A stretch of DNA of 64,000 nucleotides from Escherichia phage vB_VIPECOMC06: the sequence record PQ416618.1; one strand, written 5' to 3'. A program made the translations under genes and the position numbers. Shown in pieces: positions 28,115 through 32,054 of the stretch (within the stretch, counting starts at the first letter, position 1; each line of letters opens with the position of its first letter). Under the pieces are notes generated by a model, which had not been told where the DNA came from, did not search any database, and saw only the letters and a program-made list of their open reading frames with translations.

Positions 28115-28148
28115 TTTACAAACTCTCGGGAGCAGAGTATAATGCTCC
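28114..28148 (+). promoter_or_regulatory. Early promoter with stem-loop upstream of ORF 28150
   Basis: GTTTAC; GGAGCA … TATAAT … TGCTCC inverted repeat around -10. Confidence 0.6.
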
Positions 28149-30065: not shown

Positions 30066-30099
30066 GTTTACAACATGGTGGAGTTGTGATACTATAACT
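30066..30099 (+). promoter_or_regulatory. Early promoter upstream of ORF 30124
   Basis: GTTTAC … GATACTATAACT. Confidence 0.6.
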
Positions 30100-30123: not shown

Positions 30124-30360
30124 ATGCTAAGTGAAAACCCAATTACAGTACACGAATTTCAGATTAAAGTAAAAGAATTTGCTCAAGCACTCATCAATAA
30201 AGTGTCTGAACGTTTCCAAGATGCAACATTACGAGTTATTCAAGAATCTCCACGTTCTTTTCTCATAATCGTTAATCCTAAAGATGGTGACCAAATTACT
30301 AATCTTAAATTAGGCAGTGATGGTCTTGTTGAAGCAACTCGAGTATATGGAACACTATAA
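30124..30360 (+). CDS. Hypothetical early protein, 78 aa
   Basis: ORF with GAGGAAA RBS and early promoter upstream. Confidence 0.55.
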   Translation: MLSENPITVHEFQIKVKEFAQALINKVSERFQDATLRVIQESPRSFLIIVNPKDGDQITNLKLGSDGLVEATRVYGTL

Positions 30361-30480
30361 TTAGAGCTATCTCATTACTATCGAGAATGGTCATAAATCT
30401 GAGCACTACCAACTTAGCCTGTCTAATCCGGTTAAAGGTGTTGTTGAATCAGAATCTGTTTATATCTCCTAAGGATTGTT

Positions 30481-31473
30481 ATGTTACCTGTCATCAGAAA
30501 ACTTATTTCTCCAAAAGAACTGGCTGAGATTATTCCTTTGTCGGAAGCTTACGCATCACAAGTGGCTTCTCATCGCGAACAAGTTAATTCGATTATGAAC
30601 GGTGAAGACCCACGCAAACTTATTGTTGTAGGTCCTTGTTCAATTCATGACCCTATTGCTGCTGTTGAATACGGCAAACGTCTGGCTGAACTTCAAACTC
30701 GTCTTCCTAATGTTCTGTTAGTGATGCGCGTTTATTTTGAAAAGCCTCGAACTACCGTAGGTTGGAAAGGTCTTGTAAATGATCCATATCTTGACGGAAG
30801 TTTTGATATGAACCACGGTCTTATAGTTGCACGAACATTGTGTCGTAAACTTCTACGCATGGGACTTCCATTAGCAACTGAAGTATTAGACCCATTCACG
30901 ATTAAGTATCTTTCTGGTATTTTCTCATGGGTTGCTATTGGCGCCCGTACGACTGAAAGTCAGACACATCGTGAAATTGCTTCAGGTCTACCGATGTGCG
31001 TAGGCTTCAAGAACGCAACCAATGGTTCTATTAAAGTAGCTACAGACGCGATGTATAGTGCCGCCTGGCCTCATCGGTATATGGGTATGGACGTCGATGG
31101 TACTGTAGGCATTGTTGAAGCTGAAGGTAATCAGAATACGCATATCGTATTGCGTGGCGGGACTAACGGCCCGAACTATCATTCTTCTGATATTCAAGAA
31201 GCTTCTAACAAAGCAAGTGCATTAGGTCTGAATCATTATGTAATGGTTGACTGTAGCCATGCAAACGCTGATGGGTATTATAGCAATCAAATTGGTATTG
31301 GTAAAAATTTAGCAGCTAATGATTTGGTCAAAGGAATTATGATAGAATCATTCCTACATGAAGGAAATCAAAAAATTTCTGATAATATGTCCTATGGCGT
31401 TTCCGTTACCGATGCGTGCATCAGTTGGGAACAAACTAAAGAGCTGTTAACTTATATTAATAAGGTTCAATAA
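30481..31473 (+). CDS. 3-deoxy-D-arabino-heptulosonate-7-phosphate (DAHP) synthase, class I (AroG/AroF/AroH-like)
   Basis: 330 aa; colinear with E. coli AroG: …VVGPCSIHD…, MRVYFEKPRTTVGWKGLVNDP, GARTTESQTHRE, DCSHAN, MIESFLHEGNQ, SVTDACI; all four metal-ligand positions (Cys, His, Glu, Asp) present; TAATG coupling to cd. Confidence 0.9.
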   Translation: MLPVIRKLISPKELAEIIPLSEAYASQVASHREQVNSIMNGEDPRKLIVVGPCSIHDPIAAVEYGKRLAELQTRLPNVLLVMRVYFEKPRTTVGWKGLVNDPYLDGSFDMNHGLIVARTLCRKLLRMGLPLATEVLDPFTIKYLSGIFSWVAIGARTTESQTHREIASGLPMCVGFKNATNGSIKVATDAMYSAAWPHRYMGMDVDGTVGIVEAEGNQNTHIVLRGGTNGPNYHSSDIQEASNKASALGLNHYVMVDCSHANADGYYSNQIGIGKNLAANDLVKGIMIESFLHEGNQKISDNMSYGVSVTDACISWEQTKELLTYINKVQ

Positions 31474-32054
31474 TGAAAGCTAGCACATATCTTCAAATTG
31501 CTTATTTGATTTCTCAAGAATCAAAATGTTGTTCATGGAAAGTTGGTGCCGTCATTGAAAAAGATGGACGCATTATCTCTACTGGATATAATGGCTCACC
31601 AGCAGGTGGCGTTAACTGTTGTGAACATGCATCCGAAAATGGTTGGTTGAAGAATAAACCAAGCCCGGTCATCGTTGCTGGACATAAAGAAGGCACTACG
31701 GCATTTGGACGGGCAGATAATTTTGTTTTGGCTAAAGAACATCGGGCCGCTCATAGTGCATGGTCTGCTAATAATGAAATCCATGCGGAATTGAACGCAA
31801 TTTTGTTTGCAGCTCGTAAAGGTAATTCTATTGAAGGTGCTACGTTATATACGACGCTTTCTCCGTGTCCTGATTGCACTAAAGCTATTACGCAGTCAGG
31901 TATTAAAAAGGTTGTATACGCAGAATTATATGACAGATCTCCTGAAAATTGGGCAGACATTCTAAAACAAGCCGGTATTGAAGTAATTCAGTACTCTCGT
32001 AATAATCTTCGTTCTCTGAATTGGGAACAAATCCGAAACTTTTGTGGTGAATAA
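31473..32054 (+). CDS. cd: dCMP deaminase
   Basis: 193 aa; MKASTYLQIAYLISQESKCCSWKVGAVIEK…HAE…SPCPDC matches T4 Cd. Confidence 0.95.
   Translation: MKASTYLQIAYLISQESKCCSWKVGAVIEKDGRIISTGYNGSPAGGVNCCEHASENGWLKNKPSPVIVAGHKEGTTAFGRADNFVLAKEHRAAHSAWSANNEIHAELNAILFAARKGNSIEGATLYTTLSPCPDCTKAITQSGIKKVVYAELYDRSPENWADILKQAGIEVIQYSRNNLRSLNWEQIRNFCGE

Follow-up and report, generated by a model that had tools for sequence, protein, structure and literature searches.

The region between pseT and cd of Escherichia phage vB_VIPECOMC06 (PQ416618.1), of which 64,000 nucleotides (the window) were analysed, raises the question of why a lytic coliphage lineage should carry an enzyme that controls flux into the shikimate pathway, and whether this enzyme still obeys the aromatic amino acids that restrain its cellular relatives. 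The gene in question (Table 1) starts with ATG and encodes a full-length class I-alpha DAHP synthase (DAHPS) of 330 amino acids. A longer N-terminus is not possible because the frame closes within the leader, and no in-frame ATG, GTG or TTG is found further 5'. A first-pass annotation made from the sequence had described the product as complete, probably active, adapted to the phage, coupled to cd and possibly insensitive to feedback. Profile matches, sequence identities, conserved residues, codon usage and structure comparison, all of them evidence from sequence and model, support this reading.

The assignment to the DAHP synthase family rests on several profiles. TIGR00034 (aroFGH; NCBIfam) matches with 426.4 bits against a cutoff of 173.2 and aligns residues 5-327 with model positions 8-335 of 342. 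Pfam PF00793 (DAHP_synth_1) is matched with E = 2e-74 (250 bits vs 25.5), PRK12755 with 454 bits (cutoff 343), and PHROG 5045 with E = 1.5e-181 over residues 1-330 and profile positions 8-337 of 341. The protein aligns over its whole length with AroG, AroF and AroH of E. coli K-12, as the first reading had it, at identities of 47, 51 and 44%, respectively. The closest solved structure is E. coli AroF (6agm; E = 1e-104), and the AF2 model (pLDDT 93.3, pTM 0.92) has the (beta/alpha)8 barrel of DAHP synthases, matching 1gg1, 1kfl and 4hso with TM 0.96 and an rmsd of 1.4 A in a Foldseek comparison with the PDB. KDO8P synthase (KdsA), which also belongs to PF00793, can be ruled out: the NCBIfam matches at E <= 0.01 are exclusively DAHP synthase models, and the top structural matches are all DAHP synthases, with no KdsA among them. 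Scores below threshold were obtained with the AroG-specific equivalog NF006723 (362, cutoff 568) and the AroH-specific PRK12756 (384, cutoff 463), so the label "Tyr-sensitive" in some GenBank records is unsupported.

Table 1. Features of the cd.2-DAHPS-cd region, with positions in the window.
Feature	Position	Strand	Basis or remark
Promoter-like site (gTTTACA, 17-nt spacer, TG-extended TACTAT)	30067..30095	+	consensus scan; upstream of cd.2
Resident cd.2 (78 aa, DUF7320)	30124..30360	+	95% identical to RB69 Cd.2
Left cassette junction (probable), TAATTAGAGCTATCTCAT	30358..30377	+	resembles RB69/window cd start TAATGAAAGCTAGCACAT
Pseudogene remnant of Kanagawavirus/Marfavirus-type cd.2 (SYLITIENGHKSEHYQLSLSNPVKGVVESESVYIS*)	30365..30472	+	last 35 codons and stop
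Shine-Dalgarno AAGGA	30471..30475	+	5 nt before the DAHPS ATG; overlaps the TAA stop of the remnant
Class I-alpha DAHP synthase (3-deoxy-7-phosphoheptulonate synthase, EC 2.5.1.54)	30481..31473	+	profiles, alignment, AF2 model; ORF listing
Remodelled allosteric pocket of DAHP synthase	residues V135, I141, K142, G146, I147, P171, Y200
TAATG stop/start overlap with dCMP deaminase	31471..31475	+	stop TAA 31471-31473, cd ATG 31473-31475
cd, dCMP deaminase (193 aa), downstream partner	31473..32054	+	ORF listing, Pfam

The active site is preserved. All four metal-ligand motifs named in the first-pass annotation (VVGPCSIHD, DCSHAN, MIESFLHEGNQ and SVTDACI) occur in the translation, and their catalytic residues survive proper alignment: C53, H260, E289 and D311 correspond to C61, H268, E302 and D326 of AroG. 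The ligands of PEP and of the phosphate of erythrose-4-phosphate (E4P) are likewise all present (R83, K88, P89, R90, T91, R156, K177 and R225, equivalent to AroG R92, K97, P98, R99, T100, R165, K186 and R234). Neither the four metal ligands nor the five PEP ligands nor the KPRT motif vary among the window protein and the 24 phage-clade sequences compared, the 13 catalytic residues checked remain unchanged down to 55% identity, and the metal ligands are also kept in Providencia phage P0030, which was later grouped with the phage clade. Judged by these residues, the enzyme is probably catalytically competent and converts PEP and E4P to DAHP and Pi. The gene is under purifying selection. Between genera dN/dS amounts to 0.14-0.33 at saturating synonymous divergence, and the comparison of Entb_45 with PEi26 (dS 0.62) gives 0.16; within Mosigvirus the ratios range from 0.15 to 1.0 and are uninformative, as they derive from 2-13 differences per pair. 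By tblastn, full-length homologues were found in 212 phage records, every one of these matches spanning at least 80% of the protein without a truncated copy.

The feedback pocket is a different matter. In an unbiased scan just 7 of 330 alignment columns discriminate the phage clade from 98 cellular homologues, and four of the seven are among the 10 AroG positions at which feedback resistance has been published (list from PMC9529685; hypergeometric P = 1.4e-5), or five if D155 is counted (P = 3e-7). The changes AroG P150 to I, Q151 to K, D155 to G, S180 to P and F209 to Y are present in 23-24 of the 24 phage sequences, with I141, K142, P171 and Y200 standing in the window protein at AroG P150, Q151, S180 and F209; the canonical P/Q/D/S/F are kept in 90-97 of 99 cellular homologues. 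AroG L156 is also replaced, by Ile. Q151 and S180, which hold the main chain of the inhibitor and contact the part that Phe, Tyr and Trp share (PMC9529685), are invariant in the three E. coli isoenzymes and occur in 96-97 of the 99 cellular homologues. The pocket segment ATEVLDPFTIKYLSGIFSW as a whole is 97.5% conserved within the phage clade compared to 80% in bacteria, which the simple loss of a site would not lead one to expect.

The N-terminus, noted at first reading as about 8 residues shorter than that of AroG, is indeed 8 residues shorter in the alignment (8-9 vs AroF and AroG), and the segment with AroG D6/D7 is deleted in all 24 phage-clade sequences. Shumilin and colleagues reportedly placed, in the structure of 2002 (PDB 1kfl), the N-terminal D6/D7 of the partner subunit in the AroG inhibitor site. 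Together with this deletion, the pocket changes across the clade indicate that Phe, Tyr and Trp probably do not inhibit the phage enzyme. What had been a guess from the short N-terminus thereby gains strength, as inhibitor-contact residues are replaced throughout the phage clade as well.

An unlikely alternative is that the enzyme is active and still regulated by an aromatic amino acid, its pocket having been retuned in the way that distinguishes AroF, AroG and AroH. AroG D146, G178, L179 and V221 are conserved in the phage enzyme, P138 and G202 equal residues P148 and G212 of the Tyr-type AroF, and the Trp-sensitive AroH naturally has Gly at position 150, so not each change means lost regulation. 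Since the pocket is better conserved in phages than in bacteria, it may moreover still bind something. Retuning would, however, have to accommodate Lys and Pro in place of the backbone-contacting Q151 and S180 as well as the missing D6/D7 segment, and single changes (P150L, S180F and Q159A, the last equivalent to Q151) already suffice for resistance (PMC9529685).

The gene call itself is already known. The window phage is a JS09-type Mosigvirus, and 139 phage records contain the same gene with a DNA identity of 95-100%, most of them annotating it as DAHP synthase, aroF or aldolase; it also has its own PHROG and has been mentioned in papers as an auxiliary metabolic gene. The function is thus neither unrecorded nor, as the first-pass annotation assumed, unexpected. 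Our literature search retrieved such annotation-level mentions and no experimental or functional study of a phage DAHP synthase. The features added here to the existing annotations are the clade-specific changes in the pocket and N-terminus, the origin of the leader from a cd.2 remnant, and the absence of the cassette in RB69 and relatives.

DAHPS belongs to an old lineage confined to the T4-like phages that infect Enterobacterales. The phage sequences form a monophyletic clade (bootstrap 200/200; neighbour-joining only), and in five or more T4-like genera the gene occupies the pseT-cd interval, the order pseT...cd.2-DAHPS-...cd being shared by Mosigvirus, Kanagawavirus, Marfavirus, Winklervirus, Bragavirus and a metagenomic T4-like contig. 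The search for a cellular donor turned up nothing close, the best cellular homologues being only 50-55% identical; P0113, the neighbour of the phage clade in the tree, sits on an ordinary bacterial chromosome fragment and was discarded as phage or donor. Neither do further shikimate genes accompany DAHPS: an ORF of shikimate kinase size in Marfavirus encodes an HNH homing endonuclease, and the other ORFs beside the gene in other genera belong to PHROGs of unknown function and of cd.1 size. T4 has cd.5, cd.4, cd.3, cd.2 and cd.1 in this interval and no DAHP synthase, in line with the first reading. RB69 and some 10 further Mosigvirus records, including JK42, JK36 and moha, lack the gene as well, so any benefit must be conditional.

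Within Mosigvirus, DAHPS is an accessory cassette that bears the scar of recombination between phages. The segment 30361-31473 corresponds almost exactly to the insertion relative to RB69. Its first 120 nt had been taken for a leader without a promoter. The latter part stands, as the consensus scan detected no sigma-70-like site within 30361-30480 and a promoter of its own was accordingly discarded for the leader. A regulatory leader it is not: according to colinear tblastx matches, protein alignment and DNA alignment, it is the decayed 3' third of a foreign-type cd.2, and therefore the cassette came by phage-to-phage recombination. The left junction is probably a microhomology that joined the interior of the donor cd.2 to the cd.2/cd boundary of the recipient. 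A G-to-T change at 30362 in the window abolishes an ATG that its relatives retain at this junction, and thereby closes a remnant ORF of 41 aa annotated as hypothetical protein in related records. A riboswitch, attenuator or other structured RNA was rejected for the leader (fold z = 0.42; no Rfam match at E <= 1), and so was TyrR control of the host type, with 74 TyrR-box-like matches compared to 84.6 expected from shuffles and none in 30148-31444. In Kanagawavirus, the TAAGG between cd.2 and DAHPS likewise combines the stop of cd.2 with the Shine-Dalgarno sequence, the same arrangement as that of AAGGA and TAA in the window. The earlier view of the gene as an ameliorated resident and not a recent arrival holds for transfer from host to phage, given the distance to all cellular homologues, while within Mosigvirus the gene is an accessory element.

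Composition and gene order tie DAHPS to its phage surroundings. Its GC content is 40.8% and its GC3 29%, compared to 52% and 50-57% for E. coli aroF, aroG and aroH, and its RSCU values correlate at 0.88 with the other ORFs of the window and at 0.27 with aroFGH, which bears out the phage-like, AT-rich codon usage initially proposed. The translational coupling to cd through TAATG was also read correctly; direct abutment or overlap of DAHPS and cd recurs in Kanagawavirus and in the metagenomic T4-like contig (L015). An early cd.2-DAHPS-cd transcript probably starts at the promoter-like site in front of cd.2, which occupies the position equivalent to that of an annotated early promoter between cd.3 and cd.2 of T4; the site is a consensus match only, in a region that overall is not enriched over shuffles for sigma-70-like sites.

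The explanation that we favour as a whole, and regard as reasonably probable, is a competent class I-alpha DAHP synthase of a T4-like lineage that is expressed early, escapes feedback control and sustains the supply of aromatics. The gene would be read early on a joint cd.2-DAHPS-cd message, with its own AAGGA site directing translation, and the enzyme would condense PEP with erythrose-4-phosphate to DAHP. Since the enzyme has a rebuilt AroF/G/H-type inhibitor pocket and lacks the N-terminal strand closing that pocket, Phe, Tyr and Trp are predicted not to shut it off. Once transcription of host genes has ceased and the isoenzymes of the host are subject to repression or feedback inhibition, the phage enzyme might thus keep carbon entering the remaining shikimate enzymes of the host. 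This would maintain chorismate and aromatic amino acids for an AT-rich phage proteome that is a heavy user of them: in window ORFs of at least 150 aa, F+Y+W make up 9.6% and Tyr 4.0% of residues, compared to about 8.2% and 2.8% in E. coli proteins. The branch-point enzymes PheA, TyrA and TrpE are themselves feedback-controlled, and therefore extra DAHP need not yield extra amino acids.

Other uses of the enzyme were considered in the light of its neighbourhood. A deregulated or re-wired DAHP synthase might be blind to aromatics or sense a ligand relevant to the phage, and its conserved coupling to cd might then reflect service to the nucleotide and folate economy, via chorismate to pABA and folate or via drainage of E4P into pentose phosphates, and not plain supply of amino acids; this we consider rather doubtful. 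Little credence is given to a rebuilt pocket that senses a new effector (chorismate or prephenate, dCTP, hm-dCTP or dTTP, or a phage protein) and ties shikimate entry to the phage programme. The clade-specific residues are strongly conserved, and in every genus examined the gene adjoins, often with translational coupling, the allosteric dCMP deaminase within the nucleotide-metabolism block. No computation points to a ligand, however, so the proposal is purely inferential, and the conservation may instead reflect packing near the active site, which is ~8.5 A away from the inhibitor site (PMC9529685), or a dimer interface that offsets the lost N-terminus. Equally improbable appears a role as carbon-flux valve, with the unregulated enzyme serving as an irreversible sink for E4P (and PEP) toward pentose phosphates and dNTPs, or providing chorismate for pABA and folate (Td, gp42, Frd). 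Such a valve would fit a gene that keeps its place between pseT and cd, is coupled to cd and lies shortly downstream of frd, td, nrdA and nrdB, and it has an analogy in talC and CP12 of cyanophages, which redirect the pentose-phosphate pathway. Its stoichiometry would be wasteful, though, with seven carbons lost per pentose gained, and neighbourhoods in T4-like phages are only loosely functional, the same block also containing gp31, rIII and the spanins. Finally, a nearly neutral passenger gene, disseminated by recombination or by co-conversion with a homing endonuclease and contributing little or nothing to fitness, is very improbable, since the polymorphism of DAHPS in Mosigvirus, its lack in T4 and RB69, the scar on the cassette and the HNH homing endonuclease between DAHPS and cd in Marfavirus are outweighed by a dN/dS of about 0.15-0.3, invariant catalytic residues, 0 truncated copies in 212 and the retention of the locus across genera.

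Among known systems, the JS09-type Mosigvirus phages (ST0, AV113, SSE1, HX01, JS09, PhAPEC2, Bas47 and the O157 typing phages) are the closest. They have the same gene between cd.2 and cd, annotated as phospho-2-dehydro-3-deoxyheptonate aldolase, DAHP synthase or aroF. Their records show essentially no difference to the window apart from the change at 30362, and the proteins of ST0 and AV113 are 100% identical to that of the window. Within this genus, Bas47 (AlbertHofmann, BASEL collection), whose gene bas47_0048 is 97.6% identical to that of the window, lends itself to comparison with RB69, JK42 and moha, from which the gene is naturally absent. E. coli AroF (6agm) and AroG (1kfl/1gg1) share the fold and have identical metal, PEP and E4P ligands, but the phage protein has two small deletions, of 5 aa and of 3 aa, close to the C-terminal helices, and its C-terminus is shorter. 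One might imagine a connection with arabinosyl-hmC, the DNA modification of RB69-type phages, as DAHP is an arabino-heptulosonate and the paralogous KDO8P synthase uses arabinose-5-P. It was rejected because RB69, whose type of phage is described with this modification in PMC6024577, is without the gene, and the protein matches DAHPS models only. Klebsiella phage KLB31, a Kanagawavirus, belongs to the same phage clade (Kanagawavirus proteins are 77% identical to that of the window), and its DAHP synthase has been noted as an auxiliary metabolic gene hypothesized to boost aromatic amino acids, without analysis of the regulatory site (PMC11845039). The claim made there that the gene is unseen in terrestrial phages is contradicted by the 212 records.

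The phage enzyme also resembles the pathway-dedicated DAHP synthases of biosynthetic gene clusters, such as PhzC of phenazine clusters, whose logic is an escape from host control at the entry to the pathway: an additional DAHP synthase comes along with a programme that makes heavy demands on it. PMC8772962 describes PhzC as distinct from aroF/G/H; the enzyme of the phage, by contrast, is of class I-alpha and is supplied without genes of the downstream pathway. The most instructive comparison is with enzymes engineered for feedback resistance, namely AroG P150L, S180F, D146N and F209A and C. glutamicum AroF P155I/L and Q159A (PMC9529685). Of the positions that metabolic engineers mutate, AroG 150, 151, 180 and 209 are naturally substituted in this lytic coliphage lineage, while D146, a key position for engineered resistance, is retained. 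In the phages, several changes are combined with the N-terminal deletion and fixed across genera, with a resistance that is predicted. If the prediction is true, this would be a clean case of a phage that overrides allosteric control of its host beyond adding enzyme copies, and would provide a feedback-resistant class I-alpha DAHP synthase, optimised by natural evolution and of use for making aromatic compounds.

The DAHPS gene encodes a complete class-I DAHP synthase, as the first-pass annotation had read it; profile scores, full-length alignment and predicted fold all agree. The protein gives a significant match to Pfam DAHP_synth_1 (2e-74), scores 426 bits against the NCBIfam aroFGH equivalog TIGR00034 (cutoff 173) and 454 against subfamily PRK12755 (cutoff 343), and falls under the cutoffs of both the AroG-specific and the AroH-specific NCBIfam models. 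Its whole-length identities to AroG, AroF and AroH, extracted from the E. coli K-12 record, are 47, 51 and 44%, respectively, and the closest solved structure is E. coli AroF (6agm, 1e-104). An AlphaFold2 model based on 34 homologues (pLDDT 93.3, pTM 0.92) superimposes on structures of AroG and Neisseria DAH7PS (TM score 0.96, rmsd 1.4 Å). The four motifs quoted earlier for the metal ligands are all found in the translation, and on a 123-sequence alignment these ligands (C53, H260, E289, D311) are invariant in the window and all phage relatives compared, as are the PEP ligands R83, K88, R156, K177 and R225 and the KPRT motif.

The inhibitor pocket is altered. All phage sequences aligned lack the N-terminal segment with AroG D6/D7; these residues help the partner subunit to shut the pocket, and N8K or deletion of Ile11 in this part reportedly desensitizes AroF (Shumilin et al. 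2002; Weaver and Herrmann 1990; Jossek et al. 2001). In the window and in 23–24 of 24 sequences of the phage clade, P150 is replaced by I, Q151 by K, D155 by G, S180 by P and F209 by Y (AroG numbering), while 90–97 of 99 cellular homologues retain P, Q, D, S and F at these positions. Published feedback-resistance positions of AroG are D146, M147, P150, Q151, L175, L179, S180, A202, F209 and V221; S180 (S181 in AroF) contacts the inhibitor main chain, Q159A (Q151-equivalent) is classed as directly interfering with inhibitor binding, and a D155–K127 salt bridge stabilizes the region (PMC9529685). A prior-free scan for columns with one residue in at least 90% of the phage sequences and another in at least 85% of the cellular sequences returned only 7 of 330 columns, AroG 150, 151, 155, 156, 180, 209 and 223. 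Four of these overlap with the published set of ten (hypergeometric P = 1.4e-5), or five if D155 is counted as one of them (P = 3e-7). At the protein level, the phage lineage is thus set apart essentially by remodeling of the inhibitor pocket, while the catalytic core has stayed the same. Conservation of the remodeled segment ATEVLDPFTIKYLSGIFSW is 97.5% among phages versus 80% in bacteria, and therefore the pocket is not simply decaying; it may be structurally constrained or bind something else.

Several observations concur that the gene has long resided in phages, is under purifying selection and is not a recent host capture. Cellular homologues reach at most 50–55% identity, and neighbor-joining of 123 sequences places all 25 from phages in a single clade (200/200 bootstraps) nested in a larger AroF-containing group; the closest non-phage branch, homologue P0113, is encoded on an ordinary fragment of a bacterial chromosome. 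All genera examined share one slot (pseT, small cd.x ORFs, cd.2, DAHPS, 0–2 ORFs, cd, 31.1, 31, rIII), confirmed in Kanagawavirus, Marfavirus, Winklervirus and Bragavirus and also present in a metagenomic T4-like contig whose DAHPS protein is just 57% identical. Between-genus dN/dS is 0.14–0.33 with synonymous sites near saturation, and 0.16 for the least saturated pair, Entb_45 versus PEi26 (dS 0.62); within Mosigvirus the ratio is uninformative, with only 2–13 differences per pair. GC content is 40.8% (GC3 29%), and codon usage correlates at 0.88 with that of the window's other ORFs versus 0.27 with E. coli aroFGH, which bears out the earlier view of a resident with phage-like codon usage.

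In Klebsiella phage vB_Kpn_P545 (Marfavirus; L005 3480–4049), the ORF between DAHP synthase and cd overlaps the DAHPS stop and encodes a 189-aa HNH/NUMOD3 homing endonuclease (phrog_655, 1e-53), so that it is ruled out as a pathway enzyme; such elements could help to shuttle the DAHPS cassette among T4-like phages. A DAHP synthase homologue with 38% identity, annotated as hypothetical, occurs in the non-T4-like Aeromonas phage HJ05 (79 kb, unclassified Caudoviricetes; L008 2399–3562) and is probably an independent acquisition. Several other matches below 50%, on short phage-labeled contigs (Acinetobacter MD-2021a, Salmonella S.Kent 1-2-1, fecal “Bacteriophage sp.”), may be cellular DNA.

Features of the DAHPS locus (window positions)
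Feature	Position	Strand	Details
Promoter-like site	30067–30095		gTTTACA, 17 nt, TG-extended TACTAT; upstream of cd.2; consensus scan
cd.2 remnant	30365–30469, then TAA	+	in-frame translation SYLITIENGHKSEHYQLSLSNPVKGVVESESVYIS
Shine-Dalgarno AAGGA	5 nt before DAHPS ATG	+	30471–30475
DAHPS ORF	30481–31473	+	330 aa, ATG start; mechanical ORF list
TAATG overlap	TAA 31471–31473, next-gene ATG 31473–31475	+	one shared A
Upstream neighbors of DAHPS			PseT polynucleotide kinase, Cd.4, RB69ORF227c-like ORF, Cd.3 (DUF7355), Cd.2 (DUF7320)
Downstream neighbors of DAHPS			dCMP deaminase, 31.1 (WYL_2), gp31

The ORF and its coupling to the next gene are located as first described, and no longer N-terminus is possible, because frame 0 of the 120 nt before the gene (the “leader”) is closed upstream of the ATG. 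T4 has an annotated early promoter at the position matching the promoter-like site before cd.2; together they suggest an early cd.2-DAHPS-cd transcript. The top sigma-70-like match of the region, 28115–28143 (TTTACA, 17 nt, TATAAT; 11/12), precedes small ORFs before pseT and is possibly another early promoter.

The first-pass annotation saw no early promoter in the leader itself. This held, as a consensus scan of the leader found no sigma-70-like site; nor did it contain a TyrR-box-like site, an Rfam match or significant RNA structure (z = 0.42). Protein and DNA alignments identify it as a degenerate remnant of the 3' part of a foreign cd.2, imported with the DAHPS gene. Its translation aligns with the C-terminal third of Kanagawavirus/Marfavirus-type Cd.2 (SYLITIE...VES.SVY) and is unlike the resident Mosigvirus/T4 type (SFLIIVN...VEATRVYGTL), and the DNA match takes in the TAAGG of the donor type, where the DAHPS ribosome-binding site contains the stop codon of cd.2. 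RB69 homology reaches 30375 and restarts at 31470, with 19 bp of RB69 sequence aligning at either end; TAATTAGAGCTATCTCAT, directly after the cd.2 stop, is similar to the cd start TAATGAAAGCTAGCACAT. From these junctions, the most economical history would be that an RB69-like ancestor received a fragment with a cd.2 3' end plus DAHPS from another T4-like phage, with the left junction formed at a short microhomology and the right one resolved through homology at the cd start. At 30347–30472, SSE1, AlbertHofmann (phage Bas47) and PhAPEC2 carry TAATGAGAGC; the 41-aa “hypothetical protein” annotated here in SSE1 and AlbertHofmann is in fact the remnant of the foreign cd.2, fused to five codons that overlap the cd.2 end. 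In the window, base 30362 is T, not G, which turns GAG into TAG in this frame and also abolishes the ATG of the TAATG at the left junction. The top megablast matches all begin at the third base of the query, as expected if it is the window that deviates.

Within Mosigvirus, the gene is accessory. RB69, the type Mosigvirus, joins cd.2 straight to cd via TAATG, and a probe spanning this junction found the empty site in about 11 Mosigvirus records, namely RB69 (two records), ECO111 5-P, vB_Eco_mar005P1 records, JK42, JK36 and moha; in the remaining records the insert splits the junction. T4 carries cd.1 instead of a DAHP synthase, in line with the first-pass annotation. The absence of the gene from RB69 rules out a link with RB69-type arabinosyl-hmC DNA. 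The RB69 dCMP deaminase (L010 6743–7252) is annotated with 169 aa, compared to 193 aa in the window (31473–32054) and T4, but the DNA aligns at 95.5% with just a 3-base length difference over 1.65 kb, which suggests a premature stop, frameshift or annotation issue in the RB69 record.

The best supported role, as far as sequences can tell, would be that of an active DAHP synthase blind to Phe, Tyr and Trp and produced early in infection together with dCMP deaminase. With host transcription off and the host isoenzymes repressed or inhibited, it would keep carbon entering the shikimate route, whose downstream steps would be performed by pre-existing host enzymes. The window's proteins contain 9.6% F+Y+W (Tyr 4.0%), compared to roughly 8.2% (Tyr 2.8%) in E. 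coli proteins, which lends modest support to aromatic supply. Alternatively, the conserved pocket might be retuned yet still sense an aromatic amino acid, or it might bind a new effector. It has also to be considered that the enzyme could serve the nucleotide program as an E4P/PEP sink or chorismate/folate supplier, the sole hint being its conserved neighborhood with frd, td, nrdAB and cd. The selection data speak against a near-neutral passenger.

The gene's function, at first called unexpected, is a known and widely annotated feature. The window is a JS09-type Mosigvirus, and the 1113-bp stretch of gene and leader occurs in 139 phage records at 95–100% identity (megablast), in most of them annotated as phospho-2-dehydro-3-deoxyheptonate aldolase, DAHP synthase, aroF or AroG. 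Phages ST0 and AV113 encode a protein 100% identical to that of the window, which belongs to PHROG 5045, classed as an auxiliary metabolic gene; 212 phage records contain full-length homologues (tblastn), among them proteins with 57–77% identity from T4-like phages infecting Klebsiella, Serratia, Erwinia, Enterobacter, Edwardsiella and Proteus. Naming in GenBank is inconsistent (aldolase, “Tyr-sensitive aroF,” AroG, “phosphate synthase I alpha,” hypothetical protein), and the pocket residues do not support the “Tyr-sensitive” label. Some records label the adjacent cd as ribD or tRNA-specific adenosine deaminase, and a 98% identical protein named “3-deoxy-7-phosphoheptulonate synthase [Escherichia coli]” (P0001) probably stems from a phage genome under its host's name. 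Full-text literature searches turned up no experiments with a phage DAHP synthase; the passing mentions are a domain listing in the phiC120 genome paper (PMC8022965) and the hypothesis, in a Klebsiella phage study, that the enzyme boosts aromatic amino acids (PMC11845039). No annotation or paper was found to describe the pocket remodeling. Beyond this record, two points remain of interest: a natural feedback resistance, as predicted here, and the unexplained conservation of the rebuilt pocket.
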